From the NCBI GenBank assembly GCA_963921345.3, contig OZ001228.1, positions 670,536-702,535 of the forward strand: DNA of 32,000 nt, in the 5' to 3' direction. The position numbers were made by a program, and so were the translations under genes. Positions 7,319 through 29,909 of this stretch are shown in pieces. Under the pieces are notes generated by a model. It was not told the DNA's origin, did no database searches, and was given only the letters and a program-made list of their open reading frames with translations. This stretch comes from Rhizobiaceae bacterium. Its GTDB lineage: Bacteria > Pseudomonadota > Alphaproteobacteria > Rhizobiales > Rhizobiaceae. Position 1 is the stretch's first letter. Each line of letters begins with the position of its first letter.

Positions 7319-7319
7319 G

Positions 7320-7859
7320 ATGCCGCAGCGCCGCAAGATCGACCTGTTGCCGGTGGAACTGCGCGAGTGGCTCCAGGAAGAACTGAAGAAACGCGGCTTT
7401 CGCCACTACGAGGACCTGACCGAGGCGCTGAACGCCCGGCTCGAGGAGGAAGGGCTGGAACTGCGCGTCGGCCGCTCGGCCGTGCATGCCTATGGCCAGT
7501 CCTATCTCGAATATGCCACCATGCAGGAGCAGGCCCAGGACCAAATCCGCCTGTTCCTGGAAGAGGCCAGCCTGAAGGAGGAGGTCGATGTGACCTCCGC
7601 GCTGTTTCAGCAACTGACAACCCTGCAATGGCGGTTGCAGATGATGCTGGCCGATCCGGAAAAGTTGCCGGATCCGCGCGGCATGAAGGACCTGACCACG
7701 GCGCTCAACAACCTGATCCGCTCGACCAGCCTGCGCAACGGCATCCTGAAGGCCGAACAGGCCAGGCAGTCGGAGCGGCTGGAACAGGCCGTCGAGGCCG
7801 GCGAGATCGACCAGGTCGCCGCCCGCAAGGCGCGCGAGATCATGGGCTTCGGCGCATGA
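7320..7859 (+). CDS. Mu gp27-like terminase small subunit (DUF3486 type)
   Basis: ATG 7320 inside ORF 7203..7859. N-terminus PQRRKIDLLPVELREWLQEELKKRGFRHYEDLTEALN is typical of gp27-like proteins. Immediately precedes and overlaps the large terminase gene. Confidence 0.7.
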   Translation: MPQRRKIDLLPVELREWLQEELKKRGFRHYEDLTEALNARLEEEGLELRVGRSAVHAYGQSYLEYATMQEQAQDQIRLFLEEASLKEEVDVTSALFQQLTTLQWRLQMMLADPEKLPDPRGMKDLTTALNNLIRSTSLRNGILKAEQARQSERLEQAVEAGEIDQVAARKAREIMGFGA

Positions 7860-9334
7860 CCGTCCACGCCCCGGTCATCGATTTCCTGCCGTACCAGAAG
7901 GCGTGGATGAACGACCCGTCACGCTTCAAGATCGGCATGATCACGCGGCGCGGCGGCAAGACCTTTGCCACCGTGGGCGAGGCGGTCGACGACTGCATCA
8001 ATGCGGAGATCGAGCGCCGCAAGACGCGTTGGACGATCCTCAGCCGATCGGAGGCCACGGCCCGCGAGGCCGTCGACGAGGCGGCCCGGCCGATGACCAG
8101 CGCCTGGTACGAGGTCTATTCGACCCTGGCCAGACGCGGCCGGCCGGAATTCAGCGAAGAGGACTTCGTCGTCCCGGCCCATACCAGGCAACTGATCCAG
8201 ATGGGCCAGGTCTTCGAGGTCCATGTCGAGCAGGCCACCTACAAGGCGCAGGAAGTGCGCTTTCCGGGCGGCTCAAGGATTACCGCGATCTCCGCCTCGC
8301 CGCACGCCGCACGCGGCTTTGGCGGCAACCTGATCCTCGACGAGTTCGCCTTCCACCAGGACAGCCGCCGCATCTGGGGCGCCGCCTTTCCGGTCGCCGC
8401 GCGCGGCAGGCACAAGATCCGCATCATCTCGACCCCGAACGGCAAGGGCAACAAGTTCTACGAGATCATGACCACGCCGGACAATGGCTGGTCGAAGCAC
8501 CATGTCGACATTCATGAGGCCGTCGAACAGGGCCTCGACGTCGACCCCGATGAACTGCGCAGGGCGCTCAACGACGAAGACGTCTGGGCGCAGGAGTTCA
8601 TGCTCAAATGGATGGAGGCCGCCAGTGCGTGGCTCACCCATGAACTGATCTCGTCCTGCGAGGACCCGCGCGCCGGTCACCCCGAGGTCTATGCCGGCGG
8701 CCTGTGCTTCGTCGGCGTCGATATCGCGGCAAGGAACGACCTGTTCGTGATCTGGGTCGCAGAGATGGTCGGCGGCCAGTTGATCACCCGGGAAATCATC
8801 ACGGATCGCAAGATCAGCTTCGCACGCCAGGACGATATGCTGGCCGATGTGTTCCGCCGCTATCGTGTGGTGCGTTGCTGCATGGACCAGACCGGCATGG
8901 GCGAAAAGCCGGTCGAGGATGCCAGAAGGGCGCATGGGACAAGCCGTGTCGACGGCATCCTGTTCAGCGTCACGTCCAAGCTGGACCTGGCGATCGGCAT
9001 GAAGGATCGCATGGAAGAACGCGGCCTGCTCATTCCCGAAGGCGATCCCCTGCTGCGCGCCGACCTGCATGCGATCAAGTCGGTCACGGGCGCGACCGGA
9101 ATCCGCCGCCTGATAGCCGATGGCGACACGGATGGTCATGCCGACCGGTTCTGGGCCGCCGCACTGGCCTGCGCGGCCGCGGGCTCGACCGCGGGCCCCT
9201 TCGAGATGCGAGTGGGGCCGCAACTGGCCACCACGGCGCTCGGCGGCGGTCCGGGGGGCGCGGCGGGCTACCGCGTCGATCCGCATCTCAACATCGTCCG
9301 CTCGCCGCTGGCGGGCCCTGTCGGCTGGAGGTGA
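7856..9334 (+). CDS. terminase large subunit (Mu gp28-like)
   Basis: ATG 7856 (residue 164 of ORF 7367..9334) overlaps the gp27 stop. LPYQKAWMND, P-loop-like TRRGGKTF, Walker B LILDEFAF, C-terminal nuclease-like VGVDIAARNDLFV. Confidence 0.85.
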   Translation: MTVHAPVIDFLPYQKAWMNDPSRFKIGMITRRGGKTFATVGEAVDDCINAEIERRKTRWTILSRSEATAREAVDEAARPMTSAWYEVYSTLARRGRPEFSEEDFVVPAHTRQLIQMGQVFEVHVEQATYKAQEVRFPGGSRITAISASPHAARGFGGNLILDEFAFHQDSRRIWGAAFPVAARGRHKIRIISTPNGKGNKFYEIMTTPDNGWSKHHVDIHEAVEQGLDVDPDELRRALNDEDVWAQEFMLKWMEAASAWLTHELISSCEDPRAGHPEVYAGGLCFVGVDIAARNDLFVIWVAEMVGGQLITREIITDRKISFARQDDMLADVFRRYRVVRCCMDQTGMGEKPVEDARRAHGTSRVDGILFSVTSKLDLAIGMKDRMEERGLLIPEGDPLLRADLHAIKSVTGATGIRRLIADGDTDGHADRFWAAALACAAAGSTAGPFEMRVGPQLATTALGGGPGGAAGYRVDPHLNIVRSPLAGPVGWR

Positions 9335-9340
9335 CGCGCC

Positions 9341-10915
9341 ATGGATACCAGGGACACCGAGATCCCCAAACGCCCCGATACCGAAGAACAGACCGCGCCG
9401 CAGCTGACCGCGCGGCTGGGCGGCCTCGGCGTCTGGGGCCAGACCGCCGGCTGGCTGGAGGGCCTGGGATCGGGCCTTGCCGGAACGGCCGGCGGCTTCA
9501 CGGCGGGAGCGTTTGGCGACAATGCCGCGATCGACGCCGCCGAGATCGCGCTCACCGACAGCAAGGTATCGGCCGTGCTGGGTCAGCGCATCGACGGGCT
9601 GCTGGCGGCGCCGCTGATGATCGAGCCCGCCAGCGACACCCCGCTGGACGTGGCGGCCGCCGACGATCTGCGCGCGCAGTTGCAGGCCATCGACATGAAC
9701 CGCGTCAGCCGCGCGCTCCTGCACGCGATCTGGTACGGCTACGCCCTCAGCGAGTGCCTGTGGGCGATCGACGGCCGGCGGGTGCGGCTCGTCGACATCC
9801 GCAGCCGCGATCCGCGCCTCATCCGCTACGACTGGACCACGCTGGAACCGCTGTTGGTGACGCGCGGCCAGCCCGGCGGCATCAACCTGCCGCCGGCCAA
9901 ATACATCCTGCATCGCAACCCGCCGCGCCATGGCGGGCAGCCCTTCGGGCTCGGCGCCGCGCACTGGTGCATCTGGCCGGTCTGGCTCAAGCGGCAGGCG
10001 ATGCGCATGTGGTCGGTGGCGCTGGAGAAGTTCGGCACGCCGACGCTGGTGGGCAAACACTTGCGCGATGCCCCCAAAAGCCAGGTGGACGCGTTGCTGG
10101 CCACGATGGCCGCGGCGATCAGCGCCAGTTGCATCGCCCTTCCCGACGACCAGGACGTGCAGATCCTGGCCGCCGCGAAATCCGGCACATCGGGCGGCTC
10201 GGGTGGTTCCGGCGGCGGCGATTTCAAGGCCATGGTCGCCGCCCTCGACCGCATGATCGCAGAGGCCGTCGTCGGCCAGCACGCAACCTCCGAAATCGGC
10301 CAGCACGTGGGCACCGCGCAGGTCCAGAACGAAACACTCCAGGCGCTGATCGCCAGCGACGAACACAGGCTCTCCGAATGCCTGCGCTCCACCGTGGCGA
10401 CATGGCTCACCGCCTGGAACTTCCCGGGCGCCGCCGTCCCGCGCCTGCGACGCGACACCGCGCCGCCGGAGGACCTGGAAGCCCGCGCCCGACGCGACCT
10501 CTATATCGCAAAGGCGTCCGGCCGAAGACCTGCGGCCGACTATGTCGAGGAGGTCTATGGCGGCACATGGGAAGAGGCCGCACCCGACCCCGGTGCGGAC
10601 CCCGCCAGGTTCGCGGCGGCCGCCGCTCCGACCGACGCAATCACCGGCCTCGTCAATCACCTCATCGGCGAGGACATCGCGCTCGAGGCCGCCGCCGCAA
10701 CCGTGCTGCCCGTCGAAGAGGCCATCGCCGGGGCGACATCGCTTCAGGACCTGCGCACCCGGCTCGACCGCATCGCACAGGCACCACCGCCGGACGCTCT
10801 GACACAGCTCTACGCCCGCGCCGACTTCATCGCGGGCATGGCCGGAAACGCCGGCGTTCCGCTGGGCCATGCGTCGGGAGGACCCGACGGTGATGAAGAC
10901 GATCCGCAGACCTGA
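9341..10915 (+). CDS. portal protein (Mu gp29-like, DUF935 type)
   Basis: 524 aa ORF directly after TerL. Size and position fit; internal region resembles DUF935 portals. Confidence 0.75.
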   Translation: MDTRDTEIPKRPDTEEQTAPQLTARLGGLGVWGQTAGWLEGLGSGLAGTAGGFTAGAFGDNAAIDAAEIALTDSKVSAVLGQRIDGLLAAPLMIEPASDTPLDVAAADDLRAQLQAIDMNRVSRALLHAIWYGYALSECLWAIDGRRVRLVDIRSRDPRLIRYDWTTLEPLLVTRGQPGGINLPPAKYILHRNPPRHGGQPFGLGAAHWCIWPVWLKRQAMRMWSVALEKFGTPTLVGKHLRDAPKSQVDALLATMAAAISASCIALPDDQDVQILAAAKSGTSGGSGGSGGGDFKAMVAALDRMIAEAVVGQHATSEIGQHVGTAQVQNETLQALIASDEHRLSECLRSTVATWLTAWNFPGAAVPRLRRDTAPPEDLEARARRDLYIAKASGRRPAADYVEEVYGGTWEEAAPDPGADPARFAAAAAPTDAITGLVNHLIGEDIALEAAAATVLPVEEAIAGATSLQDLRTRLDRIAQAPPPDALTQLYARADFIAGMAGNAGVPLGHASGGPDGDEDDPQT

Positions 10916-12288
10916 TGCCTGATCCGATTGATCTCAGCCCCCCGGTGAAGGCCATCGGCCTCGATCCCCAGGAGGCGATTGAATTCTTCCGCTCCAAAGG
11001 CTACGCACCGCCCGAAAGCCGGTTTTCCTATCGCGACTGGTTCGGCGCATCACACGCCCGCGGCTTCGTCGTCGCCAAGGCCATGCAGGACGATCTGCTC
11101 GCAACCATCCGTGAGGCCGTCGATGACAGCCTTGCAAAAGGCCTGACCCTGGACAACTTCAACGACACGCTCATCCCCAAGCTCAAGGCCGCCGGCTGGT
11201 GGGGCCAGAAGACCATGCGCGATCCGCTCACAGGCGAAATGCGAACCGTCCAGCTCGGCTCCAGGCGCCGCCTCGCCGTCATCTTCGACACGAACCTGAG
11301 AACCTCATACGCCGCCGGCAAATGGACCCGCATCCAGCGTACGAAGGACCTGCTGCCCTACCTGCTCTATACACAGCTCCAGAGGGTCACCAAGCGCGAG
11401 GCGCACACACGCTTCCACCGCCTGGTCCTGCCCGCCGATCATCCGCTGTGGGCCACCCACTATCCACCCAACGGATATTACTGCGCCTGCACCGTGCGCC
11501 AGATGAGCCGGACCATGCTGGACAACGAGGGGATCGCCGTCTCGGCCGAACCGCCGATCAAGTACAAGACCTGGACCGATCCCCGAACCGGCCGACGGCT
11601 GCGGGTGCCCGAAGGCATCACTCCGGGCTTCGACACCAATCCCGGAGCCACCTTTCTCGCCGACCAAGGACGCCATGACAGCATCGCGGGTGACCTCACC
11701 CCGGAAGCCCGCGGAGCCGAACTGGGACTGATCCACGAAGCCCGAAGCCGGGGGCTCAGAACCGGCAGCCGCCATCTCGCCGCGATGGATAACGACATGC
11801 CGAGCGGTTGGATCGACGGAGGATCACAACGCCCGCTGCCCGATGACACGCTCAAGGTCCGGCTCGCCGATCCCGCCGCAAGCATCGCGCTGATCCGAAA
11901 CCAGCCGGCATCGCAGGGCCTGTCGTCCGCCGACCTGCAAGACCTCGAAACATGGCCAGGCCTTTCCCGCACCGTCGCCGTCGCCCACGACGGATCCCTC
12001 CACAGGGCAAGCCTGCGAGCCGAAACACCGCAGCCCGGCCTCGCCGCCGCGACCGCATCACTGCTGAATATCGCCCGCCAGAAGATCCGCTCCATGAGCG
12101 AGCCTGGAACCGACGACCGCGTCATCGAGACGCTCGCCATCCTCGCCACTGCACGAACGCTCGATCGCGCCGGACTGATCGACTACGCATGGACCCTCGC
12201 AGGCGGCAGCAAGCTGATGCTCGACAACTTCGGCACAAGCCGCATGGACAGTCTGGTCGCCGAAATGGCCGCCAGCCTCACGCCCTGA
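10915..12288 (+). CDS. MuF-like head morphogenesis protein (Mu gp30 family)
   Basis: HTRFHRLVLPADHPLWATHYPPNGYYCACTVRQMS is the characteristic Phage_Mu_F core. Follows the portal gene with a TGATG overlap. Confidence 0.8.
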   Translation: MPDPIDLSPPVKAIGLDPQEAIEFFRSKGYAPPESRFSYRDWFGASHARGFVVAKAMQDDLLATIREAVDDSLAKGLTLDNFNDTLIPKLKAAGWWGQKTMRDPLTGEMRTVQLGSRRRLAVIFDTNLRTSYAAGKWTRIQRTKDLLPYLLYTQLQRVTKREAHTRFHRLVLPADHPLWATHYPPNGYYCACTVRQMSRTMLDNEGIAVSAEPPIKYKTWTDPRTGRRLRVPEGITPGFDTNPGATFLADQGRHDSIAGDLTPEARGAELGLIHEARSRGLRTGSRHLAAMDNDMPSGWIDGGSQRPLPDDTLKVRLADPAASIALIRNQPASQGLSSADLQDLETWPGLSRTVAVAHDGSLHRASLRAETPQPGLAAATASLLNIARQKIRSMSEPGTDDRVIETLAILATARTLDRAGLIDYAWTLAGGSKLMLDNFGTSRMDSLVAEMAASLTP

Positions 12289-12319
12289 ACAAGGAAGAAT
12301 ACCGGCGCGATTTTACAGG

Positions 12320-12489
12320 CCGTTTAACACCCTCGAAAACGCAGGAAAAAACACCGTTTAAACGACCTTCAGGCAAGCCGATCCGCCGGGATTGAGCAAA
12401 TCACCGTCGCATGGCCGTTTCCAGACCGCGCCCTCCAATCGGCAAGATACTACCCGCAGACCCCCTACGTTACCGCCGTTTCGGTACTC
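12320..12489 (+). repeat. four direct CCGTTT(N3-5)AC motifs in the non-coding spacer
   Basis: CCGTTTAACACC (12320), CCGTTTAAACGACC (12354), CCGTTTCCAGACC (12415), CCGTTTCGGTACTC (12476). The last two spacings are both 61 bp. Confidence 0.6.
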
Positions 12490-12490
12490 T

Positions 12491-12530
12491 CATCCGGCTT
12501 CATCCGGGAACTTCCGGCTTCTTCCGGTTT
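12491..12530 (+). repeat. 4 x 10-bp tandem repeat, consensus CWTCCGGNTT
   Basis: CATCCGGCTT CATCCGGGAA CTTCCGGCTT CTTCCGGTTT, read directly from the sequence. One helical turn per unit. Confidence 0.85.
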
Positions 12531-15500
12531 GAGCATTATTTATGTCGTCCTACACTTCCTGCTGGCGGACGATCCAGGTGCCGGCAAGACGATCATGGCC
12601 GGCCTTTTGATGAAGGAACTGATCGCGCGCGGCGATCTAGAACGCTGCCTGATTGTCGCACCGGGCAGCCTGGTCGAACAGTGGCAGGACGAACTCGGCG
12701 AGAAGTTCGCGCTCGAATTCGACATCCTGACGCGCGACATGATCGAGACCGCACGATCCGGCAATGTGTTCAAGGACCGCGACCGCCTGATCGTCCGGCT
12801 CGATGTGCTGGCGCGCAACGAAGAGCTTCAGGACAAACTGCTCGGATCGCCGGAATGGGACCTGATCATCTGCGACGAGGCGCACCGCATGTCGGCGACC
12901 TGGTTCGGCGGCGACGTCAAATACACCAAGCGCTACCAGGTCGGCCAGAAATTGGGGCGGATCTGCCGTCACCTGCTGTTGATGTCGGCAACGCCACACA
13001 ACGGCAAGGAAGAGGACTTCCAGTTGTTCATGGCGCTGCTTGACGGCGACCGGTTCGAGAGTCGTTTCCGCGACGGCGTACACTATGCCGACACCGAAGA
13101 CATGATGCGCCGGCTCACCAAGGAGGAACTGCTGCGCTTCGATGGACGACCGCTGTTTCCCGAGCGGCGCGCCTATACGGTGAAATACGATCTGTCGCCG
13201 AAGGAAGCGGCACTATATGCGGCGGTGACGGATTATGTCCGCACCGAGATGAACCGGGTACAGCGCTTTGCCGCGACAGACGGCAGGAAGCTCAACACGG
13301 TGGGCTTCGCCCTGCAGATCCTGCAGCGGCGCCTCGCCTCTTCGCCTGCTGCCATCCACAGGTCGCTGATGCGCCGGCGCGAGCGCCTTGAGAGCGAACT
13401 CGCCGAAGCGCGGCTCGCCGCAAGGGGCGGCCGGGCCTCGATCAATGCGACCGATGTCGGCGACGACATCCTGCGCAATATCGATGAATATGGCCAGGAG
13501 GATGTCGACGACCTGGAGGAACGGATATCGACCGGCGCGACCACGGCGGAAACGATTGAGCAACTGGCGATCGAGGTCGAGACGCTGAAGTATCTCGAAG
13601 CAGAGGCCCTGGGCGTGCTGGCTTCCGGCGAGGACACGAAATGGCGGCAACTCGACCGCATCCTCGATGACAACCTGATGGTTGATGGCGACGGCAATCG
13701 CCGCAAGCTGATCATCTTCACCGAACCCAAGGACACGCTGCACTATCTGTGCGACAAGGTGCGCGCCCGGCTGGGCAGGCCGGAGGCCGTCGATGTCATT
13801 CATGGCGCGGTGACGCGCGAAGAGCGCCGCAAGGTGATCGAACGCTTCATGCAGGACCGCGACCTGCTGGTGCTGATCGCCAACGATGCCGCCGGCGAAG
13901 GCGTCAACCTGCAGCGCGGCCATCTGATGGTGAACTACGACCTGCCGTGGAACCCGAACAGGATCGAACAGCGCTTCGGACGCATCCACCGGATCGGCCA
14001 GACCGAGGTCTGCCACCTGTGGAACATCGTTGCGGCGGACACGCGCGAAGGCGAGGTCTATGGCCGCCTGCTGGAAAAGCTGGAGGCCGCACGCGCTGCC
14101 CTTGGCGGGCGCGTCTACGATGTGCTCGGCGAGTTGTTCGAAGGTGTCGCGCTGAAGGACCTTCTGATCGAAGCCATCCTCTACGGTGAAAGGGATGAAG
14201 TGCGCGAGCGCCTGTTCCGACAGGTCGACGGCGTGGTCGATCAGACTCACCTGCTCGACCTTCTCAAGCGCCGCGCGCTGACGAATGACACCATGCCGCA
14301 GGCGAAGGTCCGGAAACTGCGCCTCGACATGGAACGGGCGGAAGCGCAGCGGCTTCAGCCGCATCACGTGCAGAGCTTCTTTGTCGAGGCGTTTCAGCGG
14401 CTGGGCGGCCGGTTGAAGGCGCGGGAGGATGGCCGCTGGGAGATCACGCATGTCCCCGTGCGCCTTCGCGAACGCGACCGGCAGATCGGAACCGGTGCTC
14501 CGGTCCAGAAGAAATACGAGCGCATCTGCTTCGACAAGGCCGGGATCAACCGGCAACCGGTCGCGGCCTTCATCTGTCCGGGTCACCCGCTGCTTGAAGC
14601 GGTCATCAGCATCGCGCGCGAAGATCACGGCCACCTGATGAAGCAGGGCGCGGTCATGATCGACGATGCCGACGACAGCATGGCACTGTCGGCCATCTTC
14701 CTCATCGAACACAGCGTGCAGGACGGCTGTCGTACCGGCGCAGACAGGCCGCACATTGTTTCGCAAAGGCTGCAATTCGCGGCGATTGCTGAAACCGGTG
14801 TGACGACCGATGCCGGGATCGCGCCGCACCTCAACCTGCGTCCGGCCGATGCGGACGAGATCGCACACGCCGAAGACCTGCTCGATCAGGACTGGCTGAC
14901 GTCCGACCTGGAAAAACCCGCGCTGGAATTCGCGACCGTGGAATTGGCGCAGCGGCATGTTGCGGAGGTGAAGGCACGGCGCCTTCCCGAGATCGACAAG
15001 GTCGCGGCCGAGGTCAAGGCGCGGCTTGGCAGGGAAATCAATCACTGGGACAAACGCGCCGCCGAGCTTCGGGAAGAGGAAAAGGCCGGCAAGAAGACCC
15101 GCCTCAACTGGCAGAACGCCGAGCGCCGTGCCGAGGAACTTGCCGAACGGCTGAAGCGCCGGCAGGCACAGCTTGACGCGGAACGGCTGATCACCGCGCA
15201 ACCGCCCCGTGTGCGCGGCGGTATGGTCGTCATTCCGCGCGGCCTGCTCGAAGAACGTCGTGGCGATGCGGTGAAAGACGGCATGGCACCGCCGGGATTT
15301 GCCGAAGACCCGGAAGCGCGCAGCAGGGTAGAGGTCGCCGCCATGGATGCTGTGATGGAGGCGGAAAAGGCGCTAGGCAACCATCCGGAAGATGTTTCGG
15401 CGCAGAAGGTCGGCTATGACATCGCCTCCTTCGATCCGACGGCTGACCGCATGCGGTTCATCGAAGTCAAGGGCCGGGTCGAAGGGGCGGATACGGTGAT

Positions 15501-15699
15501 GATCACGCGCCAGGAGGTCATCACCTCGCTGCACGAACCCGACCGGTTCATCCTCGCCATCGTGAGTGTAAAGGACAGTTTTGCGCATGCCCCGCGCTAT
15601 GTGCGCGGACCGCTCGTGGAGCGCGAGCCGTCGTTTTTGGAGACCGCGATACAATTCAGCCTGAAACGCCTGCTGGAGCGGGCGGAGGAGCCGGAATGA
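12529..15699 (+). CDS. SNF2/DEAH-type helicase with C-terminal DUF3883 domain, apparently 5'-truncated
   Basis: Walker A DDPGAGKT sits about 15 codons from the TTG start. DEAH (ICDEAHRM), SATPHNG, helicase-C motifs ANDAAGEGVNLQ and QRFGRIHRIGQ. C-terminal GYDIASFDPTADRMRFIEVKGR...RFILAIV is the DUF3883 signature. No ATG or SD at the 5' end, and the upstream frame is unrelated. Confidence 0.8.
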   Translation: MSIIYVVLHFLLADDPGAGKTIMAGLLMKELIARGDLERCLIVAPGSLVEQWQDELGEKFALEFDILTRDMIETARSGNVFKDRDRLIVRLDVLARNEELQDKLLGSPEWDLIICDEAHRMSATWFGGDVKYTKRYQVGQKLGRICRHLLLMSATPHNGKEEDFQLFMALLDGDRFESRFRDGVHYADTEDMMRRLTKEELLRFDGRPLFPERRAYTVKYDLSPKEAALYAAVTDYVRTEMNRVQRFAATDGRKLNTVGFALQILQRRLASSPAAIHRSLMRRRERLESELAEARLAARGGRASINATDVGDDILRNIDEYGQEDVDDLEERISTGATTAETIEQLAIEVETLKYLEAEALGVLASGEDTKWRQLDRILDDNLMVDGDGNRRKLIIFTEPKDTLHYLCDKVRARLGRPEAVDVIHGAVTREERRKVIERFMQDRDLLVLIANDAAGEGVNLQRGHLMVNYDLPWNPNRIEQRFGRIHRIGQTEVCHLWNIVAADTREGEVYGRLLEKLEAARAALGGRVYDVLGELFEGVALKDLLIEAILYGERDEVRERLFRQVDGVVDQTHLLDLLKRRALTNDTMPQAKVRKLRLDMERAEAQRLQPHHVQSFFVEAFQRLGGRLKAREDGRWEITHVPVRLRERDRQIGTGAPVQKKYERICFDKAGINRQPVAAFICPGHPLLEAVISIAREDHGHLMKQGAVMIDDADDSMALSAIFLIEHSVQDGCRTGADRPHIVSQRLQFAAIAETGVTTDAGIAPHLNLRPADADEIAHAEDLLDQDWLTSDLEKPALEFATVELAQRHVAEVKARRLPEIDKVAAEVKARLGREINHWDKRAAELREEEKAGKKTRLNWQNAERRAEELAERLKRRQAQLDAERLITAQPPRVRGGMVVIPRGLLEERRGDAVKDGMAPPGFAEDPEARSRVEVAAMDAVMEAEKALGNHPEDVSAQKVGYDIASFDPTADRMRFIEVKGRVEGADTVMITRQEVITSLHEPDRFILAIVSVKDSFAHAPRYVRGPLVEREPSFLETAIQFSLKRLLERAEEPE
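12542..12554 (+). repeat. TG..CA-type terminal inverted-repeat-like sequence (ATGTCGTCCTACA)
   Basis: Its reverse complement TGTAGGACGACAT matches 11/13 the left terminus TGTAGGGCGACAG of the IS21-family element at 27640. It lies exactly where helicase homology begins. Confidence 0.45.
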
Positions 15700-17165
15700 G
15701 CAAGACAAGAGAGACCGCTTCGGACAAGCGCAAGCAGCCAAGAAGTATCAGGATCAAGGTGAGCGATTTCGGGCCGATCTCCAAGGGCGAAGTTGACCTT
15801 CGTCCACTCACCGTGTTCGCCGGCCCGAGCAACACTGGCAAGTCCTGGCTGGCGACGCTGATCTATGTAATGGATCAATATCTCAGCGACACTACGAAAT
15901 CTGTATTCAGATGGCCACTGTACCCCAAAAAGGACCCGTCGGTTCGATTTCCCGAGAAGCCCGCCATTTGGCTTGAAAGCATCGGCAACAAAGAAGCGGT
16001 GCCGCTGACCAACAGTGACCGTAAAATACTTGCAACAGCCCTCAAGGCCGATCGTCTCGAATTTGGAACGCAACTCTTGCGCAGCTTTGGACTGACTGAA
16101 CTGCGTCACCTTTCACGCGAGGGCAGCAACCGTACCGCAAGATTCAATTTCTTCGATGAAGATGCTACCCGTTCCCCCGCAACCCGTTATCAATTTGCCA
16201 TTACCGATAATGACAATGTCGCACTCCGAGTGGACATCGCCAATCAATTGAAGCTTGGACTGTTCGAGAATTCGCAACGGCTTTTGGCCGATATCAGTCA
16301 TGACATCCAAACAGATGACGAAGATACCAGGCAAGTGATGCGATTTATTCATCACATTTTTTCGTCCGAAAACAGCAAATTTGCGTTCTATCTGCCGGCG
16401 GACCGTGGCGGGGTGATGCATGCGCACCATACGGTTGTCAGCGCACTTATACAGAATGCATCGCGTGGAGGCCTCATTCGCAATGCACCGTTGCCGATGC
16501 TATCGGGTATACTGGGCGATTTTCTGCAAAACCTTCTAAATGTTGTGCAGAACCAGCAAGGTGGCATGTCCTCCTGGCTTGCTCTCAGGGGCAAAGAACT
16601 GGACGGCGCACGAGCCGACCGTCTAGAGAACAATGTCCTTAACGGGAGGGTCGAGGTTGAAAAATCAAGTGTCGATTACCCGCGCTTTACCTACATTCCA
16701 GATGGGTGGGACAGGCCGCTTTCCCTTGTGGGTGTCTCGTCCATGGTCTCGGAACTGGCCCCGGTGTCGCTTTATCTGCGCCATCATGTCCGGGAGGGTG
16801 ATCTTCTGATTCTCGAGGAACCAGAAGCGCATCTGCATCCCGCCATGCAGGTTGCATTCCTCCGCGAAATCGCGGAATGGGTCAGGCAGGGAATTCGCGT
16901 CATCCTGACGACCCACAGCGAATGGGTGCTTGAGGAACTTGCGAATATCGTGGCAACCGGTGAATCCGATTGCCCTGAAGGACTTCCCAATGAGGATGTC
17001 GGACTTTGGCTGTTCGAAACGATTGACGCCAAAAATCCAGACAAGGGTTCGACAGTGCGTGAAATCCTTTGGGACCCGGATGGTGTCGGATACGATACCG
17101 GCTTTGAAGATGTCGCAATGGCGCTGCACAACGAATGGGTCAATCTCGCGGGAGCTGAGGATTGA
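15696..17165 (+). CDS. ABC/SMC-like AAA ATPase (AAA_15/AAA_21 type)
   Basis: ATG overlaps the helicase stop (ATGA), with a GGAGGAG RBS. Walker A FAGPSNTGKS, Walker B LLILEEPEAHLHP, then ILTTHS. Sampled lines 45-53% GC against 65-70% in flanking genes. Confidence 0.8.
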   Translation: MSKTRETASDKRKQPRSIRIKVSDFGPISKGEVDLRPLTVFAGPSNTGKSWLATLIYVMDQYLSDTTKSVFRWPLYPKKDPSVRFPEKPAIWLESIGNKEAVPLTNSDRKILATALKADRLEFGTQLLRSFGLTELRHLSREGSNRTARFNFFDEDATRSPATRYQFAITDNDNVALRVDIANQLKLGLFENSQRLLADISHDIQTDDEDTRQVMRFIHHIFSSENSKFAFYLPADRGGVMHAHHTVVSALIQNASRGGLIRNAPLPMLSGILGDFLQNLLNVVQNQQGGMSSWLALRGKELDGARADRLENNVLNGRVEVEKSSVDYPRFTYIPDGWDRPLSLVGVSSMVSELAPVSLYLRHHVREGDLLILEEPEAHLHPAMQVAFLREIAEWVRQGIRVILTTHSEWVLEELANIVATGESDCPEGLPNEDVGLWLFETIDAKNPDKGSTVREILWDPDGVGYDTGFEDVAMALHNEWVNLAGAED

Positions 17166-17176
17166 AAGGCGGCTTG

Positions 17177-17629
17177 ATGAAAACTGTGAGGCAGGAGTTC
17201 AACAAATGCTGCCTCGTAACAAATTGCAGAAGAGACGGCTGCTCCGTCGATCTCAGAGGGATTGCTCATCCTTACCTACTTGTTGATTTCGACAGTCGTT
17301 GTGCTCCTTTCAAGCAGCATGAAACACGCTGTGACTACCTGTTGATTGGGGAAGGCAATCCCGCGCTGGTGGTGCCTATTGAACTGACTCGGGGCCGAAA
17401 AAAACAAAATATCTTGGTTCGGCAATTACAGGCTGGTGCCGAAGCGGCAGAAAGTGTTCTGCCTGACAATTTGGCCGTGCAATTTCAGCCCGTTCTTGTG
17501 GGTAAGTCAAAAAAATACAACCTGTCCAGCGGGAGAGAGCCGACAGTCAGCTTTCGAGGCAAGTCGGAGGGCATCTTAAAGATCGATTGCGGCGGCGTGC
17601 TGAAAGATGCATTGAGGAAAGCGAAATGA
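17177..17629 (+). CDS. hypothetical 150-aa protein; Cys cluster plus a weak nuclease-like D...ExT/R motif
   Basis: ATG 17177 (residue 6 of ORF 17162..17629) with AAAGG 8 nt upstream. CCLVTNCRRDGC near the N-terminus. CDYLLIGEGNPALVVPIELTRGRKK (D at 17333, E at 17381). Stop overlaps the methyltransferase ATG. AT-rich like the preceding ATPase gene. Confidence 0.6.
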   Translation: MKTVRQEFNKCCLVTNCRRDGCSVDLRGIAHPYLLVDFDSRCAPFKQHETRCDYLLIGEGNPALVVPIELTRGRKKQNILVRQLQAGAEAAESVLPDNLAVQFQPVLVGKSKKYNLSSGREPTVSFRGKSEGILKIDCGGVLKDALRKAK

Positions 17630-20550
17630 CGCATAGCCGCAAGAAAAAGCTGATCGAAGTCGCGATACCGCTGGATGTCATCAACGCTGCATCGGCGCGT
17701 GAGAAGTCGATTCGTCACGGGCATCCCTCGACGCTGCATCTGTGGTGGGCGCGTCGGCCATTGGCGGCTTGCCGGGCGGTGCTGTTCGCGCAGCTTGTCG
17801 ATGATCCTTCGGAGCATGTCGAGGACCTGCTCGGCGATCCCGATCTTCGGAAAGCGGCCGAAAAGGAACTGGCCGAAAGACTGGAGAAGCGCGGGAAGGA
17901 AAAGCAAGACGGTAGCGTCAATGCGGCGGATGACAGGCCGGTGACGCTGGAGGATGTGATCGTTGAACGCGAACGCCGACGCCTGTTCGCGATCATCGGG
18001 GATCTGGTGCGGTGGGAGAACTCGACGAACGAAGAAGTGCTTGAGCGCGCCCGAGCCGAAATCCGTCGAAGCTGCGGTGGCGAAATGCCGCCGGTCTACG
18101 ATCCATTCTCCGGCGGCGGGTCGATTCCACTGGAAGCGCAGCGCTTCGGACTGCCTGCTTTTGGCTCCGATCTCAATCCGGTGGCGGTGATGATCGGCAA
18201 GGCGATGATCGAAATCCCGCCGAAATTCAGGGACCAGCCGCCGGTGCATACGGACGTACGGGAGCGGCAGTTCTACCGCAATGCCGAAGGGCTGGCGGAG
18301 GACGTCAAGCACTATGGCGCGTGGATGCGCGAGCAGGCCTGGTCTCGCATCGGTCACCTCTACCCGGATGTTGAACTGCCGGAGGACGAGGGTGGCGAAG
18401 AGGCGACGGTGATCGCCTGGATCTGGGCGCGCACGGTACCGAGCCCGGACCCGGCTTTTTCGGATGTGCATGTGCCGATTGCCTCCAGCTTCCTGCTGAG
18501 TTCCAAGCCGGGCAAGAAAGGAGCCTGGATTGAACCGGTGGTTGACCGGCAGGCCAGGACGATTGCCTACCGCATCAGACGCGGCGGCACAAAGGACGAG
18601 ATTGCCAAGGTTAGAGAGGGGACCAAGGCCGGGCGCGGTGCGAATTTCCGTTGCCTGATGTCCGGCACGGCGATCACGCCGGATTATGTCAAGAGCAAAG
18701 GCAAGTCCGGACAGATGGGTCAAACGCTCATGGCCATTGTTGCCGAGGGCAAAACTGGCAGGGCCTACGTGGCACCGTCGGTCGAGCATGAGACAATCGC
18801 GTTTTCTGCCGAACCCAAGTGGAAGCCGGACACAAACCTGCCGGATGATCCACGGAATTTCTGGACGGTGGATTACGGCATGAAGACCTTCGGCGATCTT
18901 TTCACCGACCGTCAGTTGGTTGCGTTGAACACGTTCAGCGACTTGGTGCATGATGTGCGGGCGCAGGTGGAAGCGGACGCGCGTGAGGCGGGCCTGTCCT
19001 TTGATGACATACCACTGCGTGACGGCGGCAGCGGCGCAAAGGCCTACGCCGAGGCGGTGAGCGTGTATCTGGGGTTTGCGATTACCCGTCTGGCAGACCG
19101 CGGCAGCACTATTTGCGGCTGGGATTCTGGATATACGAAGATTCGCAACACATTTGGACGCCAAGCCATCCCCATGACCTGGGATTTTGCAGAAGGCAAT
19201 CCATTTTCAGATTCAACAGGCAATTGGAAATCATGTGTTGCTTGGATTTGGAAGGTTTTGGACGCGCTGGTTCCAGTTGGTTCTGGAAACGAGCGCCAGC
19301 ATGACGCCCAAACGGTCAACTATCCCGCCGATACCGTTATTTCGACCGACCCGCCCTACTACGACAATATCGGCTACGCTGATCTGTCCGATTTCTTCTT
19401 CTGCTGGATGAAGCCAGTCATCCGCCCCGTATATCCTGATCTGTTTGGAATATTGGCCGCACCCAAAGCGGAGGAACTGGTCGCCACTCCTTACCGCCAC
19501 GGTGGCAGGGAGGCAGCAGAAGCTTTCTTCCTTGATGGAATGAGCCGTGCCATCGGCAACATGGCGCGGCAGGCCAGCGATTTGTTTCCGGCCACGATCT
19601 ACTACGCCTTCAAGCAGAGCGAGGTCGACCGGGAAGGCATGAGTTCCACGGGATGGGCGACGTTCCTGCAAGCGGTGATCGATGCCGGATTTGCGGTCGT
19701 TGGCACATGGCCGATGCGAACGGAGATGGCAAACCGGATGATTGCGTCAGGCACCAACGCCCTTGCCAACTCCGTCGTCCTCGTCTGCCGCAAGAAGGCG
19801 GCCGATGCCGAGGTGATCACCCGCACCGAGTTCACCCGCGCCCTGAAGCGCGAATTACCGTCGGCGATTGGCGCACTTCGAACGGCCAACATCGCGCCCG
19901 CCGACATGCCGCAATCGGCGATCGGACCGGGCATGGGTATCTTCTCGCGCCACGCGGCCGTGCTGGAATCCGACGACAGCCCGATGCCGATGAAGACCGC
20001 GCTACAGCTCATCAATCACGAACTCGACGCGTTCCTGAACGATGTTCAGGGCGAATTCGATGCCGACACCCGTTTTGCCATCACCTGGTTCGAGCAAAAT
20101 GGCATGACCGCCAGCGATTACGGCACGGCAAACAACCTCGCCACGGCCCGCGGCCTTTCGGTCGAGAGTGTCAAACATGCCGGCATCGTCGAAAGTCGGG
20201 CTGGCAAGGTGCGCATTCTGAAGCGCGACGAATTGCCGGTCGAATGGGACCCGGCGACCGACACGCACCTTGCGGTCTGGAAGTGCTGCCAATACCTCAT
20301 CAGGACACTCGAAAACGATGGCGAACAGGCCACGGCCATGCTCTTGAAGAGGATCGGTGCGGACAAGGCTGATGCCGCCAAGGAACTCGCCTACTGCCTC
20401 TATGATATATGCGCCAACAAACGCGGAGACGCGAATGAAGCGACGTCTTACAACGCGCTGATCGCGGACTGGCCGGAACTGACACGGCAGGCGGCCAGGA
20501 TCCATGAAACCGATCTCGACGGCGACCCGCAGACCGCGATGAATTTGTGA
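17626..20550 (+). CDS. DUF1156-domain DNA methyltransferase (gamma-type motif order, DPPY)
   Basis: ATG 17626 overlaps the upstream TGA. The N-terminus KKLIEVAIPLDVINAASAREKSIRHGHPSTLHLWWARRPLAACRAV is the DUF1156 signature. AdoMet motif DPFSGGGS...GSDLNPVAV. Catalytic DPPY at 19348-19359. Confidence 0.85.
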   Translation: MTHSRKKKLIEVAIPLDVINAASAREKSIRHGHPSTLHLWWARRPLAACRAVLFAQLVDDPSEHVEDLLGDPDLRKAAEKELAERLEKRGKEKQDGSVNAADDRPVTLEDVIVERERRRLFAIIGDLVRWENSTNEEVLERARAEIRRSCGGEMPPVYDPFSGGGSIPLEAQRFGLPAFGSDLNPVAVMIGKAMIEIPPKFRDQPPVHTDVRERQFYRNAEGLAEDVKHYGAWMREQAWSRIGHLYPDVELPEDEGGEEATVIAWIWARTVPSPDPAFSDVHVPIASSFLLSSKPGKKGAWIEPVVDRQARTIAYRIRRGGTKDEIAKVREGTKAGRGANFRCLMSGTAITPDYVKSKGKSGQMGQTLMAIVAEGKTGRAYVAPSVEHETIAFSAEPKWKPDTNLPDDPRNFWTVDYGMKTFGDLFTDRQLVALNTFSDLVHDVRAQVEADAREAGLSFDDIPLRDGGSGAKAYAEAVSVYLGFAITRLADRGSTICGWDSGYTKIRNTFGRQAIPMTWDFAEGNPFSDSTGNWKSCVAWIWKVLDALVPVGSGNERQHDAQTVNYPADTVISTDPPYYDNIGYADLSDFFFCWMKPVIRPVYPDLFGILAAPKAEELVATPYRHGGREAAEAFFLDGMSRAIGNMARQASDLFPATIYYAFKQSEVDREGMSSTGWATFLQAVIDAGFAVVGTWPMRTEMANRMIASGTNALANSVVLVCRKKAADAEVITRTEFTRALKRELPSAIGALRTANIAPADMPQSAIGPGMGIFSRHAAVLESDDSPMPMKTALQLINHELDAFLNDVQGEFDADTRFAITWFEQNGMTASDYGTANNLATARGLSVESVKHAGIVESRAGKVRILKRDELPVEWDPATDTHLAVWKCCQYLIRTLENDGEQATAMLLKRIGADKADAAKELAYCLYDICANKRGDANEATSYNALIADWPELTRQAARIHETDLDGDPQTAMNL

Positions 20551-20563: not shown

Positions 20564-23500
20564 ATGGCCAAGAGTACACGTCAATATGTCTTCGAGGGGA
20601 TGGAACTTTTGCCGGAAGCGCTCATTGCGTTCGTCGAAAAGCGCCTTGAAAGTGCGGTGAAGGGCCACTGGCAGGTGGAGGTCGCGGAGCGGGTCTCTGG
20701 CCTTCGGGTGACCGGTGGCACCGTTTCCTGGGACCAGCAGGGCTTGCTGAGGGCCATGATGGCGTTCTGGAAAGATTGCTTCGCTGCCGTGCTCGGTCAT
20801 CAGGAACGGTCCCATGTTTCCGAACTGCTCGATGTCAGGAACCGGCTGTCGCACAACGAGACCTTCACCTATGACGACGCGGAACGGGCGCTCGACACGA
20901 TGCGTCGGTTGATGGAGGCGATCAGTGCCGGCGAGACCGCCGCGAAGATTGGCAAGATGCGCGACACGATCCTGCGCACCAAATATGCGGAGTTGCAGCG
21001 CAACGAGGAACGCCGCAAGACAAGACGGCTGAACCTTTCGGTGGAAACGGTTGCGGGTCTGCTGCCGTGGCGCGAGGTGGTGGAACCGCATCAGGATGTT
21101 GCGACCGGCGAGTTCCAGCAGGCCGAATTTGCTGCCGATCTTGGCAAGGTGCATGCGGGCAGCGCACCTTCGGAATATCAGAACCCGCAGGAATTCTTCA
21201 GCCGCACCTATCTGACCGAGGGATTGGGCACACTGCTTGCCGGCGCGGCCAGACGCCTGTCGGGGGCGGGCGGCGATCCTGTTGTTGACCTGCAGACCAA
21301 TTTCGGCGGCGGCAAGACGCACGCGATGCTGGCGCTTTACCATATGGCGGGCGGCACGCCGTCGGGGGATCTGCCCGGCCTCGATCAACTGCTTTCTGAT
21401 CAGGAACTCGAAGTCCCGGAAAAGATCAGCCGGGCTGTGCTCGTCGGCACGGCGCGCGGGCCGCATGACCCGGTCCGTGGCGATGATGGGCACGAGGTCC
21501 GCACGACCTGGGGCGAACTTGCCTGGCAACTCGGCGGCGCGGACGCCTATGGGATGATCTCCGACAATGACGCGAAGGGCATCGCGCCCGGTTCTAACCT
21601 GCTGGAGGCGATCTTCAGGAAATGCTCGCCCTGCCTGATTCTGATCGATGAATGGGTCGCCTATCTGCGGCAGATCTACAAGGTCGACGGCCTTCCGTCC
21701 GGCTCGTTCGACGCCAATCTGTCCTTCGTCCAGTCCCTGACGGAAGCCGTCAAGGCGAGCCCCGGCACGCTGCTCGTCGCCTCGCTGCCCGCCTCGCAGA
21801 TCGAGGTCGGCGGTGAAGGCGGACAGGAAGCACTGGTGCGACTGAAGCAGACGTTCAGCCGTGTGGAATCGTCATGGCGTCCGGCGTCGCAGGAAGAGAG
21901 CTACGAGATCGTCCGCCGCCGGCTGTTCAAGGACATTCCGGGCGACAGGCATCACCACAAGGACAACACGCTGAAGCAGTTCGCGAAGCTCTACCGGGAG
22001 AACGCCAACGATTTTCCGCAGGGCTGTGCGGACGAGGACTACCGGCGCAAGCTGGAAAAAGCCTACCCGATTCATCCAGAACTGTTCGACCAGTTGTACA
22101 CGGGTTGGGGATCGCTGGAGAAATTCCAGCGTACACGTGGCGTGCTGCGGCTGATGGCACAGGTCATTCACGAATTGTGGATGGGCAACGATCCCTCGGT
22201 GATGATCATGCCGGGCGGCGTGGCGGTCGGCTCGGCTAGGGTCGAACCGGAACTGCTGCACTATCTCGACGTGAACTGGCAATCGATCATCGCCGCCGAT
22301 GTCGACGGCGAGGCCGCGACACCCTACAGGATCGACCAGTCCGCCCCGAACCTGAACCGCTATTCGGCGACGAGGCGCGTGGCGCGCGCGGTGTTCATGG
22401 GTTCGGCCCCTACGCACCGGGAACAGAACCGGGGGCTTGACGACAGGCAGATCAACCTCGGCGTCATCCAACCGGGCGAGAAGACCGCCATTTTCGGCGA
22501 CGCTCTGCGCCGTCTGACCAACCAGGCGCGGTTCATGCACAGCGATATGGGGCGCACTTGGTATTCTACATCGCAAAGCCTCAATCGCCTGGCCGCCGAC
22601 CGGGCCGGGCAGATCGAGGAAGCGCTCGTGCTGATGGAAGTCGACAAGGCGTTGAAGACGTATATGGACGGGATCGGCGACCGCGGGCATTTCGATGCGG
22701 TACAGGTGGCACCGTCCTCATCGGCCGACATTCCTGACGAGGGGGGCGGCGTTCGCGCTGTGGTGCTCGGTGTTGCGCACCCCCATTCGGTCCGTGACGG
22801 GTCGGAGGCGCTGGTCGAAGCAAAGGATATCCTGATGCAGCGTGGTGCGACACAACGCGTCTACCGCAATACGCTGGTGTTCCTGGCCGCCGACGCCCGG
22901 CAGGTCGACAACCTCAAGGATGGCGTTCGCTCGGTACTGGCATGGAACGGGATCGTTCGCGACACGGAACGTCTTGACCTGACACAGAGCGGCAGCGCTC
23001 TCGCCAAGCAAAGGGCGCAGGAAGCGGACGAGACGGTCATCACACGTCTTCGCGAATGCTGGTGTTACCTCATCTATCCATATCAGGAGAACGCGCAGGC
23101 GGATGTCGAATGGACATCCGGCAAGGTTTCGACGCAGGATGGCCTGCTACACCGGTCCGGCAAGATGCTGGTGAGCGATAACACGCTGCTGCCGGAACTC
23201 GGTCCCCAGCGTCTCGATCGCGATCTGAAGCGCTATATCTGGAAAGACAAGCCGCACCTTTCGCTGAAGGAGTTATGGGACTATCTCAACCGCTATACCT
23301 ATCTGCCGCGATTGAAAGACCGCGAGGTTCTGGCAAGGGCCGTGCAGGCAGCCGTATCGGGCCTTTTACCCGGCCCGTTCGCCTATGCGCAAATGTGGGA
23401 CGAGGAAACGCAGACCTATTGCGGCCTCATCATCGACAATGCAATCGCCGCGCCTGTCGTGATTGACGACGACAGCGTGATCGTCGCGGCGGAAGTGGCG

Positions 23501-23857
23501 AAGCGCCACCGGCCCGAACCGGTGCCCGAAGGTGCCAATGCGGGGTTTGATGAGGAAGATGGCAAAGGCGGTTACCAATCTGCAACCACAGGCCCGGGCG
23601 ACCCGAAGGCCGGCCAGGAAGAACGCCTGCCGACGCGCTTTACCGGAACGGTGATGATCTCGTCCGAGCGGCCGGCCCGCGACATGAACAAGATCATCGA
23701 GGCGATTATCGACCAGTTGACGATGCTGCCCGGCAGCGAGGTAACCCTGACGCTGGAAATCGACGCGGAAGTTTCCGAAGGGCTCGACCGGTCGAAGGTC
23801 CGTACGCTGATCGAGAATGCTGGCACGCTCGGATTCAACGAAAAGTCGGTGCGGTAA
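20564..23857 (+). CDS. DUF499-type P-loop ATPase with N-terminal Swt1-like HEPN domain
   Basis: RNRLSH (Rx4H) at 20837-20854. Walker A NFGGGKTH (~21301-21324). Walker B LILIDEW. 1097 aa. Starts 13 nt after the methyltransferase stop, with an AAGGA RBS. Confidence 0.8.
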   Translation: MAKSTRQYVFEGMELLPEALIAFVEKRLESAVKGHWQVEVAERVSGLRVTGGTVSWDQQGLLRAMMAFWKDCFAAVLGHQERSHVSELLDVRNRLSHNETFTYDDAERALDTMRRLMEAISAGETAAKIGKMRDTILRTKYAELQRNEERRKTRRLNLSVETVAGLLPWREVVEPHQDVATGEFQQAEFAADLGKVHAGSAPSEYQNPQEFFSRTYLTEGLGTLLAGAARRLSGAGGDPVVDLQTNFGGGKTHAMLALYHMAGGTPSGDLPGLDQLLSDQELEVPEKISRAVLVGTARGPHDPVRGDDGHEVRTTWGELAWQLGGADAYGMISDNDAKGIAPGSNLLEAIFRKCSPCLILIDEWVAYLRQIYKVDGLPSGSFDANLSFVQSLTEAVKASPGTLLVASLPASQIEVGGEGGQEALVRLKQTFSRVESSWRPASQEESYEIVRRRLFKDIPGDRHHHKDNTLKQFAKLYRENANDFPQGCADEDYRRKLEKAYPIHPELFDQLYTGWGSLEKFQRTRGVLRLMAQVIHELWMGNDPSVMIMPGGVAVGSARVEPELLHYLDVNWQSIIAADVDGEAATPYRIDQSAPNLNRYSATRRVARAVFMGSAPTHREQNRGLDDRQINLGVIQPGEKTAIFGDALRRLTNQARFMHSDMGRTWYSTSQSLNRLAADRAGQIEEALVLMEVDKALKTYMDGIGDRGHFDAVQVAPSSSADIPDEGGGVRAVVLGVAHPHSVRDGSEALVEAKDILMQRGATQRVYRNTLVFLAADARQVDNLKDGVRSVLAWNGIVRDTERLDLTQSGSALAKQRAQEADETVITRLRECWCYLIYPYQENAQADVEWTSGKVSTQDGLLHRSGKMLVSDNTLLPELGPQRLDRDLKRYIWKDKPHLSLKELWDYLNRYTYLPRLKDREVLARAVQAAVSGLLPGPFAYAQMWDEETQTYCGLIIDNAIAAPVVIDDDSVIVAAEVAKRHRPEPVPEGANAGFDEEDGKGGYQSATTGPGDPKAGQEERLPTRFTGTVMISSERPARDMNKIIEAIIDQLTMLPGSEVTLTLEIDAEVSEGLDRSKVRTLIENAGTLGFNEKSVR

Positions 23858-29847: not shown

Positions 29848-29909
29848 GCTGTCCTCGTAACACTGGGTGTCGTCTTAACTCGTAAGTGTAGGTGTCGCTT
29901 GACACGGAT

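Follow-up and report, generated by a model that had tools for sequence, protein, structure and literature searches.

A candidate autonomous ABC ATPase and predicted nuclease gene pair embedded in the Hma operon of a Rhizobiaceae bacterium

The gene pair and the closest described systems

Genes embedded in Hma defence operons have been described before. They were present in 62.7% of 1,485 Hma systems, where pairs of an ABC ATPase and a nuclease were the commonest, and the analogy of such pairs with PrrC has already been raised (Payne et al, 2024, bioRxiv 10.1101/2024.01.29.577857). HmaA-dependent defence has been validated experimentally, and in hmaABC of Halomonas a pair of an AAA_21 ATPase and an unannotated protein was reported in a region termed a defence-gene insertion hotspot (Liu 2024, PMC11232893). 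The embedding of ATPase and partner pairs in Hma, the guard idea with its PrrC analogy and the class of system are therefore published, and the pair described here does not overturn current views. This pair, named genes A and B, lies at positions 15696–17629 of a 32-kb stretch (hereafter the window) of contig OZ001228.1 from a Rhizobiaceae bacterium (GenBank assembly GCA_963921345.3, positions 670,536–702,535, forward strand). Gene A (15696–17165, + strand, ATG start, TGA stop) encodes an OLD/PtuA-like ABC ATPase of 489 amino acids (aa), and gene B (17177–17629, + strand, ATG start, TGA stop) encodes a 150-aa predicted nuclease of the restriction endonuclease (REase) fold, PD-(D/E)xK type. We would put at about two in three the probability that A and B form an autonomous antiphage module, in which an ABC-ATPase sensor acts with a small REase-fold effector, located in an insertion hotspot at the hmaA|hmaB junction.

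Two systems of this class have been studied experimentally. WonAB of the Vibrio cholerae WASA-1 prophage consists of an OLD-type ABC ATPase and a “novel REase”; it needs both genes, the ATPase motifs and K71 of WonB, acts abortively through a lysis-independent shut-off of translation, and the toxicity of WonB depends on active WonA (PMC12137116). PD-T4-4 is an experimentally protective pair of an ABC ATPase and a PD-(D/E)xK nuclease (Vassallo et al, 2022; nuclease-NTPase class, bioRxiv 10.1101/2025.07.10.664194).

The product of gene A contains Walker A (GPSNTGKS, aa 43–50, 15822–15845), the signature-like SSMVSELAP (16737–16763), Walker B with the D-loop (LLILEEPEAHLHP, aa 370–382, 16803–16841) and the H-loop TTHS (aa 405–408, 16908–16919), all on the + strand. 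In 23 homologues of A, Walker A, SSM-x-SEL-x-P, the Walker B/D-loop EEPEAHLHP and the H-loop TTHSEW were invariant. Pfam assigned AAA_15 and AAA_21, and the PADLOC matches were PD-T4-4_A (1.6e-28, 98 bits) and PDC-M47A (6.8e-25), then NsnB, AriA and GajA. The AlphaFold2 model (predicted local distance difference test score, pLDDT, 79.6; predicted template modelling score, pTM, 0.83) recovered PtuA (Septu, retron I-A) and the heads of SMC and Rad50 in Foldseek at E ~1e-13 to 1e-9. On the basis of these matches, the invariant motifs and the modelled fold, A is an ABC ATPase of the OLD/PtuA neighbourhood, in agreement with an earlier reading of the sequence alone (the sequence-only reading), which had placed it with the ABC/SMC-like ATPases of the type seen in OLD, Gabija or PARIS and had cited three of the above motifs for A and CCLVTNCRRDGC for B, all of which were found. 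Membership of OLD, Gabija or PARIS themselves was rejected because neither A nor B matched TOPRIM or DUF4435 in Pfam and PADLOC, and the matches of AriA and GajA to A were restricted to the ATPase part. The nearest solved proteins by sequence (an OLD-family protein, UvrA and PtuA) matched A only in the Walker B region, and the same region gave the only matches when A was searched against a plasmid collection by tblastn.

Sequence searches with B found no match in Pfam, NCBIfam or PDB, and tblastn of B against plasmid and phage collections found none either. A word-indexed search returned 16 homologues. When a profile was run against 1.84 billion cluster representatives (50% clustering), 1,537 passed E ≤ 1e-3, 270 of them also E ≤ 1e-30, and a length of 150–165 aa was usual among the 150 best matches listed. 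The putative catalytic core (17333–17425, + strand) carries D53, E69 and Q83, with T71 where K is usual. Across 240 aligned members D53 was kept in 97%, E69 in 98% and Q83 in 95%, and at position 71, 84% of the members have K, 10% T and 2% S. The family consensus …R-C-D-Y-L…(x15)…P-I-E-L-K-x-G…Q-L-x-x-G corresponds to the classical D…(D/E)-x-K arrangement. Thus, the D-x15-E-x-T motif, which had been noted as a loose resemblance to such nucleases, is real, and the small open reading frame (ORF) is conserved. The AlphaFold2 model of B is a compact alpha/beta domain (pLDDT 88.6, pTM 0.87) with D53 just before the strand 54–58, E69 in the strand 63–70, T71 right after it, and Q83 on the helix 77–94. 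The weak top Foldseek matches of this model were mostly restriction endonucleases, McrC, Cas4, EndoMS, Mrr and UL24-like PD-(D/E)xK proteins. B is therefore predicted, from its conserved residues and modelled fold, to be a PD-(D/E)xK-type nuclease of the REase fold. Cysteines are a further feature of the family, C22, C52 and C138 being present in 92–95% of the aligned members and C12 and C17 in 66–78%. In two loci (L090, 11521–12003; L010, 11376–11855) B has R-P-D-F-L for R-C-D-Y-L and neither C22 nor C138, so the Cys site is dispensable in some lineages.

Pfam-A, NCBIfam and PADLOC-DB v2.0.0 hold no model that matches the pair as a member, and we compared it with its neighbours one by one. 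HEC-01, HEC-02, HEC-03 and the Halomonas pair resemble A–B in layout, with the gene of an ABC ATPase placed ahead of that of a small effector and both flanked by hma genes that run in the same direction. HEC-02B likewise belongs to the PD-(D/E)xK (NERD) proteins, and the HEC pairs are also found mostly outside Hma (Payne et al, 2024). Like other Hma-embedded cassettes, A–B, on the + strand, has hmaA on one side and hmaB on the other and occurs outside Hma as well. However, HEC-01A, HEC-02A and HEC-03B matched A only over ~50–80 residues around Walker B and the H-loop (E 3e-11 to 3e-9), no HEC partner profile matched B, and B is neither TOPRIM, NERD nor PIN. In view of the missing full-length match of A and partner match of B, membership of HEC-01, HEC-02 or HEC-03 was rejected. 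PD-T4-4_A is the best PADLOC match of A, over part of the profile. For the two genes together, the closest PADLOC entry is the candidate PDC-M47 (cassette FAM_00005>>FAM_02059), whose PDC-M47B profiles matched the D…E-x-K core in 11 of the 17 B-family members searched (best 1.8e-5); these matches are partial and weak, as for a sister family and not a clear member.

With WonAB, the pair shares the two-gene order, similar sizes and the ATPase motifs EEPEAHL[HY]P and TTHS, and the invariant motifs and ABC head fold of A are those of the WonAB class. The B family has, like WonB, a Cys right before the catalytic Asp, E-L-K-G ~15 residues on, a downstream Q and N-terminal Cys. Three WonB homologues from the supplement of PMC12137116 were matched by the B profile with hmmsearch E of 1e-5 to 2e-4 when searched against those three sequences only. 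The two systems differ in that A is ~90 aa longer with other inserts, T occupies the place of the Lys in the window's B, and the fourth conserved Cys of B is C-terminal (C138), whereas that of WonB is in a “VDGC” motif. Furthermore, PDC-M29A/B are the PADLOC families to which WonAB homologues are assigned, and PDC-M47 is that of the B family; the pair is therefore placed by sequence as a sister family within the known class, related to WonAB, PD-T4-4 and PDC-M47. The description of the WonAB partner as a novel REase reportedly originates from the ABC-ATPase survey of Krishnan and colleagues of 2020. Septu (PtuAB), OLD, Gabija and PARIS also combine an ABC ATPase with a nuclease, and PtuA is among the closest solved structures for A; their partners, however, are HNH (PtuB) or TOPRIM proteins, and sequence similarity to A is confined to the Walker B/H-loop region. 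The B family, with its 1,537 representatives, defines a sizeable group of small predicted REase-fold effectors that neither Pfam nor NCBIfam covers and whose genes accompany that of a specific ABC ATPase.

For the autonomous antiphage module, we propose the following course of events. A would dimerize through its ABC head, by analogy with WonAB, and its variable inserts would sense an infection cue. B would dock onto the C-terminal extension of A, ATP binding or hydrolysis would license cleavage of DNA or RNA by B, and this cleavage would give protection of the abortive-infection type. Several observations weigh against such a reading. The model of B had no significant neighbour in PDB or BFVD by Foldseek (none at E < 1e-3), its homology with WonB rests on ~50 aligned columns, with an hhalign probability of 62–68% over the (R/K)-C-D-[YF]-L…E-L-K…Q core, and the match of the window's B to PDC-M47B is weak (E = 0.007). 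None of the 17 B-family members, the window's B included, was matched by PD-T4-4_B at E ≤ 1, which sets the pair apart from PD-T4-4. A itself matches PD-T4-4_A and PDC-M47A only partially; with PD-T4-4_A there are two stretches, the better one aligning aa 313–420 with positions 275–378 of 460 in the profile. The window's B carries T71 where the family keeps a catalytic-type Lys, and the K71A mutant of WonB is dead (PMC12137116). Lastly, the nearest clade keeps the pair always at hmaA|hmaB, which leaves room for functional coupling with Hma.

As for T71, activity of the window's B would need a relocated Lys, given the dead WonB mutant, and K75 and K76 are the candidates. Lys at positions 74–76 was found in 24 of 37 members without K71 (65%) against 68 of 202 members with it (34%; Fisher p = 7e-4). 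The E-x-[T/S] form makes up about 12–14% of the family, is a recurrent sub-lineage, and is common to the four closest relatives of the window's B. The enrichment hints, from the alignment, at a relocation of the catalytic Lys rather than a decay of B, and one sub-lineage of the family thus appears to have moved this residue.

Occurrence of the pair inside and outside Hma operons

The two genes are stitched into the operon by overlapping stop and start codons at both ends, as had been read from the sequence: the start of A overlaps the hmaA stop by 4 nucleotides (nt; ATGA), and the stop of B overlaps the hmaB ATG at 17626 (ATGA). The start of B is best taken as the ATG at 17177, with AAAGGCGG just upstream, the mechanical ORF beginning at TTG 17162. 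A promoter and terminator scan of 12200–17800 found no more sites than in shuffled sequence and is silent on an internal A–B promoter.

The occurrence of the pair was surveyed by running the A profile over one genome per GTDB species, which returned 79 loci. A match to B was present in 71 of these, nearly all directly downstream of A; in at least two further loci B has diverged yet shares the CD…E-x-K motif, and the remainder are truncated or interrupted by insertion sequences (IS). A and B are adjacent in ~90% of the loci. Likewise, an A homologue lay ahead of all five B homologues with inspected contigs; four of these pairs sit among housekeeping genes and the fifth in an Hma operon. At least 73 loci (~92%) are stand-alone, with no Hma genes within 10 kb. 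A clear Hma setting was found in four (L012, L013, L021 and L037), at the junctions hmaC|hmaB, hmaB|hmaC and hmaA|hmaB, and two more (L017 and L049) have weak Hma-like neighbours. Conversely, the Bradyrhizobium barranii plasmid pB323S2c (L089, 11120–16726) has an Hma operon, with 77% nt identity in hmaA, that carries an unrelated four-gene cargo at hmaA|hmaB. Because the pair is mostly stand-alone and this Hma lacks it, A–B is an autonomous two-gene module and not a core component of Hma; the latter possibility was rejected also in view of the PADLOC Hma definition, from which the pair is missing. The suggestion that the pair is an independent two-gene unit thus held, and the question whether such pairs occur alone or always inside DUF1156/DUF499 operons is answered mostly in favour of the former. 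In the window, the pair is a clean and well-delimited case of defence-in-defence embedding.

Some loci of the survey and among the relatives deserve separate mention. The cargo of the Bradyrhizobium plasmid comprises three small hypothetical genes and a 1,407-aa “ATPase”, and a gene for a WYL-domain regulator lies upstream of its intact 1,165-aa hmaA. The locus L092 (9720–11940) is degraded: all that is left of hmaA is a 94-aa NOV_C remnant, after which come A and B, both intact, and IS fragments, and the pair there has outlived its host operon. At L059 (10557–12086), the A and B profiles both match within a single frame free of stops, which may reflect a fusion of A with B or a frameshift in the assembly. 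Metagenome-assembled genomes (MAGs) of Poribacteria, Caldilineaceae, Dehalococcoidia and Paracoccaceae, lineages that we take to be typical of sponge symbionts, supplied most of the 79 loci; in the genomes of these presumed symbionts the A–B family is strikingly frequent, in some cases with tandem duplication. Tandem duplicates and multiple copies per genome were seen in Candidatus Poribacteria (L040, 7787–11933; L062, 9983–13801), two loci (L039 and L065) lie on the same Poribacteria chromosome, and two others (L042 and L067) in the same MAG.

The occurrence data bear on the idea, also put forward in the sequence-only reading, that the pair is a guard like PrrC, wired to Hma, silenced by intact HmaA, HmaB and HmaC, and firing when an anti-defence protein of a phage disables Hma. 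PrrC and RloC resemble A–B in being second-line modules based on an ABC ATPase and nested in a modification-dependent defence operon, and the PrrC precedent was taken up by Payne et al (bioRxiv 10.1101/2024.01.29.577857). The translational coupling of the genes through ATGA overlaps and the position of the five closest A homologues (L090, L091, L092, L001 and L037), all at hmaA|hmaB, would fit a guard, and a second hypervariable block in hmaB, described below, could co-vary with the pair. However, the nuclease of PrrC is fused and of the anticodon type, and its gene is almost exclusively embedded, whereas here the REase-fold protein is separate and the pair mostly stand-alone, the four clear and two weak Hma contexts in 79 loci being far from the near-exclusive embedding expected of a PrrC/RloC-type guard. 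Because stand-alone copies predominate, embedded copies use three different hma junctions, and the closely related Bradyrhizobium Hma has unrelated cargo at the same junction, an obligate coupling to Hma is not favoured. In addition, L092 keeps A–B beside a NOV_C remnant only and hmaA of the window is itself truncated, so the pair persists intact without a complete Hma, and WonAB works alone (PMC12137116). We therefore consider such a guard unlikely.

Composition and mosaic divergence of the pair

The GC content of the 1934-nt A–B interval is 52.4%, against a window mean of 62.2% (standard deviation 4.0), and only 0.13% of all 1934-nt windows are as GC-poor; the lowest of the whole 32 kb (52.3%) starts at 15724, within the interval. 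GC at third codon positions (GC3) is 0.573 in A and 0.530 in B versus 0.787 in hmaA, 0.715 in hmaB and 0.761 in hmaC. The break in composition that had been suspected from hand counts is thus real by both measures, although the 65–70% GC given at the same time for the flanking genes was slightly overstated, the measured value being 60–65%. The dip is not unique in kind, since a shorter one lies in hmaB (19001–19500, 54%), and GC is also 52–57% at the right end of the window, which is rich in IS. A comparison of the pair with its 10-kb flanks in 87 loci (median difference -4.7 points, Wilcoxon p = 3e-15) showed a lower GC content of the pair in 81, the Hma-embedded relatives included. Low GC is therefore a lasting property of the pair wherever it is found. 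The dip as a sign of recent insertion into this genome was rejected, because dip and embedding are common to relatives whose A is only 52–59% identical and so do not mark a very recent event here.

The five closest homologues of A are 52–59% identical to it and 52–64% identical among themselves. The entire seven-gene layout of the window is also present in L090 and L091. Compared with L091, HmaA, HmaB, HmaC, the Schlafen protein and the ParA-like protein of the window have 93, 83, 93, 93 and 94% aa identity, whereas A has 54% and B 41%. At the nt level, identity to L091 is ~93% over hmaA, falls to 42–67% from ~15,850 to ~17,580 and returns to 93–100% from 17,640. Within this interval, a first hypervariable block of A (15850–16740, + strand, ~aa 55–348) covers the inserts between Walker A and the signature with 45–65% nt identity. 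It is followed by a conserved island (16741–16920, + strand) with the signature motif, Walker B and the H-loop, where identity (87–93%) is near the operon background. A second hypervariable block (16921–17580, + strand, 42–67%) contains the C-terminal extension of A (aa ~410–489) and nearly all of B.

Synonymous divergence (dS) from L091 followed the same pattern, being 0.19–0.26 in hmaA, slfn and parA, 0.45 in A aa 1–60, 2.1 in A aa 61–345, 0.42 in A aa 346–412 (nonsynonymous divergence, dN, 0.027), 1.13 in A aa 413–489 and 1.95 in B aa 1–135. The variable blocks thus have 5–10 times the dS of the operon background, with sharp breakpoints. Selection on protein sequence cannot raise dS 5–10-fold, and recombination must therefore, judging from the alignments, have put divergent alleles in the place of segments of A and B, so that the variable blocks have a different, older coalescence. 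This also bears out the earlier suggestion that the history of the pair is separate from that of the operon. Local GC correlated with local identity along the operon (Spearman 0.47, p = 4e-6), divergent windows having 53.3% GC versus 62.0%, and the low GC of the pair in this Hma lineage coincides with the segments replaced by recombination. The replaced segments are the inserts of the ATPase, the C-terminal extension of A and the nuclease B itself. In described systems, ATPase inserts have been proposed as specificity determinants (Payne et al, 2024, bioRxiv 10.1101/2024.01.29.577857), and the C-terminal ATPase extension is the predicted nuclease-docking surface in WonAB (PMC12137116).

A further hypervariable block lies in hmaB (~19080–19780, + strand, HmaB aa ~400–720) around DPPY (aa 575), together with the GC dip of 54%. 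Identity to L091 is 47–72% at the nt level in this block and aa identity to L090 is 30–50% in places, against >90% elsewhere; with this block the methylase probably recognizes its target. It is conceivable, and in our view quite unlikely, that the pair is a dedicated and rapidly re-assorted guard, whose sensor inserts, docking extension and nuclease are swapped as mosaic blocks in step with the HmaB block. In that case, each operon variant would have a matched combination of methylase specificity and second-line trigger. Mosaic hypervariability of A–B and of the hmaB block in near-identical operons is not described in Payne 2024 or Liu 2024, and the pair in this one Hma lineage offers a concrete system for studying the recombinational diversification of embedded abortive-infection modules.

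The hypervariable inserts also bear on the improbable alternative that the pair senses no phage and is instead an addiction or stabilization element of the toxin–antitoxin type, or a regulatory accessory, that retains or controls the operon. AAA_21 is also the Pfam family of “AbiEii/type IV TA” proteins, over-produced WonB is toxic (PMC12137116), and embedding has been proposed to bring a selfish benefit by way of linked transfer (Payne et al, bioRxiv 10.1101/2024.01.29.577857). The sensor-like inserts, however, suit an arms race better than maintenance, and stand-alone pairs among housekeeping genes have nothing obvious to stabilize. The WonAB ATPase is needed for toxicity and does not neutralize it (PMC12137116), which argues against a simple toxin–antitoxin logic. 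Very improbable, lastly, is that the copy in the window is a decaying or inactive remnant, with the catalytic Lys lost, the operon broken and the low GC marking a recent foreign insertion. In its favour, T71 replaces the Lys essential in WonB, hmaA is 5′-truncated, and a truncated Mu-like prophage and IS elements border the locus. Against it, the two ORFs remain intact, every ATPase motif is of the invariant form, B keeps D53, E69, Q83 and the Cys set, the GC dip is shared with relatives, and the recurrence of the E-x-[T/S] sub-lineage with its enrichment for Lys 3–5 residues downstream points to purifying selection and not decay.

The surrounding Hma operon and its neighbourhood

The operon around the pair is, by its profile matches to HmaA, HmaB and HmaC, a PADLOC Hma system. 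The gene hmaA (12556–15699, + strand; mechanical ORF from TTG 12529) encodes an SNF2 helicase with a C-terminal NOV_C nuclease domain (PADLOC HmaA E = 0, profile positions 123–1172 of 1176; Pfam SNF2-rel_dom, Helicase_C and NOV_C). Homology to the intact hmaA of L089, L090, L091 and L001 starts exactly at 12556 in tblastn and blastn, and the gene is without its first ~124 codons and native upstream region. Because of this 5′ truncation the Hma system of this genome may be defective, whereas A and B are intact. The gene hmaB (17626–20550, + strand) encodes a DUF1156 DNA methyltransferase with FSGGG at aa 161 and the DPPY mentioned above (PADLOC HmaB E = 0, Pfam DUF1156), and hmaC (20564–23857, + strand) a DUF499 ATPase with HEPN_Swt1 (PADLOC HmaC 4.5e-286; Pfam HEPN_Swt1 and DUF499).

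Upstream of hmaA, genes of a Mu-like transposable prophage occupy 381–12288. They encode a MuB-like AAA_22/Phage-MuB_C ATPase (381–1508), a GcrA-like protein (3279–4076), an N6_N4 DNA methylase (5448–6206), DUF2730 (6549–7007), the large terminase (7367–9334), the Mu portal (9341–10915) and MuF (10915–12288), after which the fragment ends just before hmaA, without capsid or tail genes. The gene for the GcrA-like protein hints at an alphaproteobacterial host, as do the best nucleotide matches, to Bradyrhizobium, Rhodobacter and Rhizobium.

Downstream of hmaC, Pfam identified a Schlafen AlbA_2/HATPase_c_4 gene (23918–25126, + strand) and a ParA-like AAA_31 ATPase gene (25123–26133, + strand). 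The two genes follow hmaC in the same order in the window, L090 (18273–20485) and L091 (19104–21319), with 90–94% aa identity, and may be accessory parts of the island of this Hma lineage. Synteny between the window and L091 stops at ~26225. Directly after the island lies an IS1182-like transposase gene (26456–27817), followed by IS21 istA/istB (27899–29796) and a DDE_Tnp_1_6 fragment (29821–30333).

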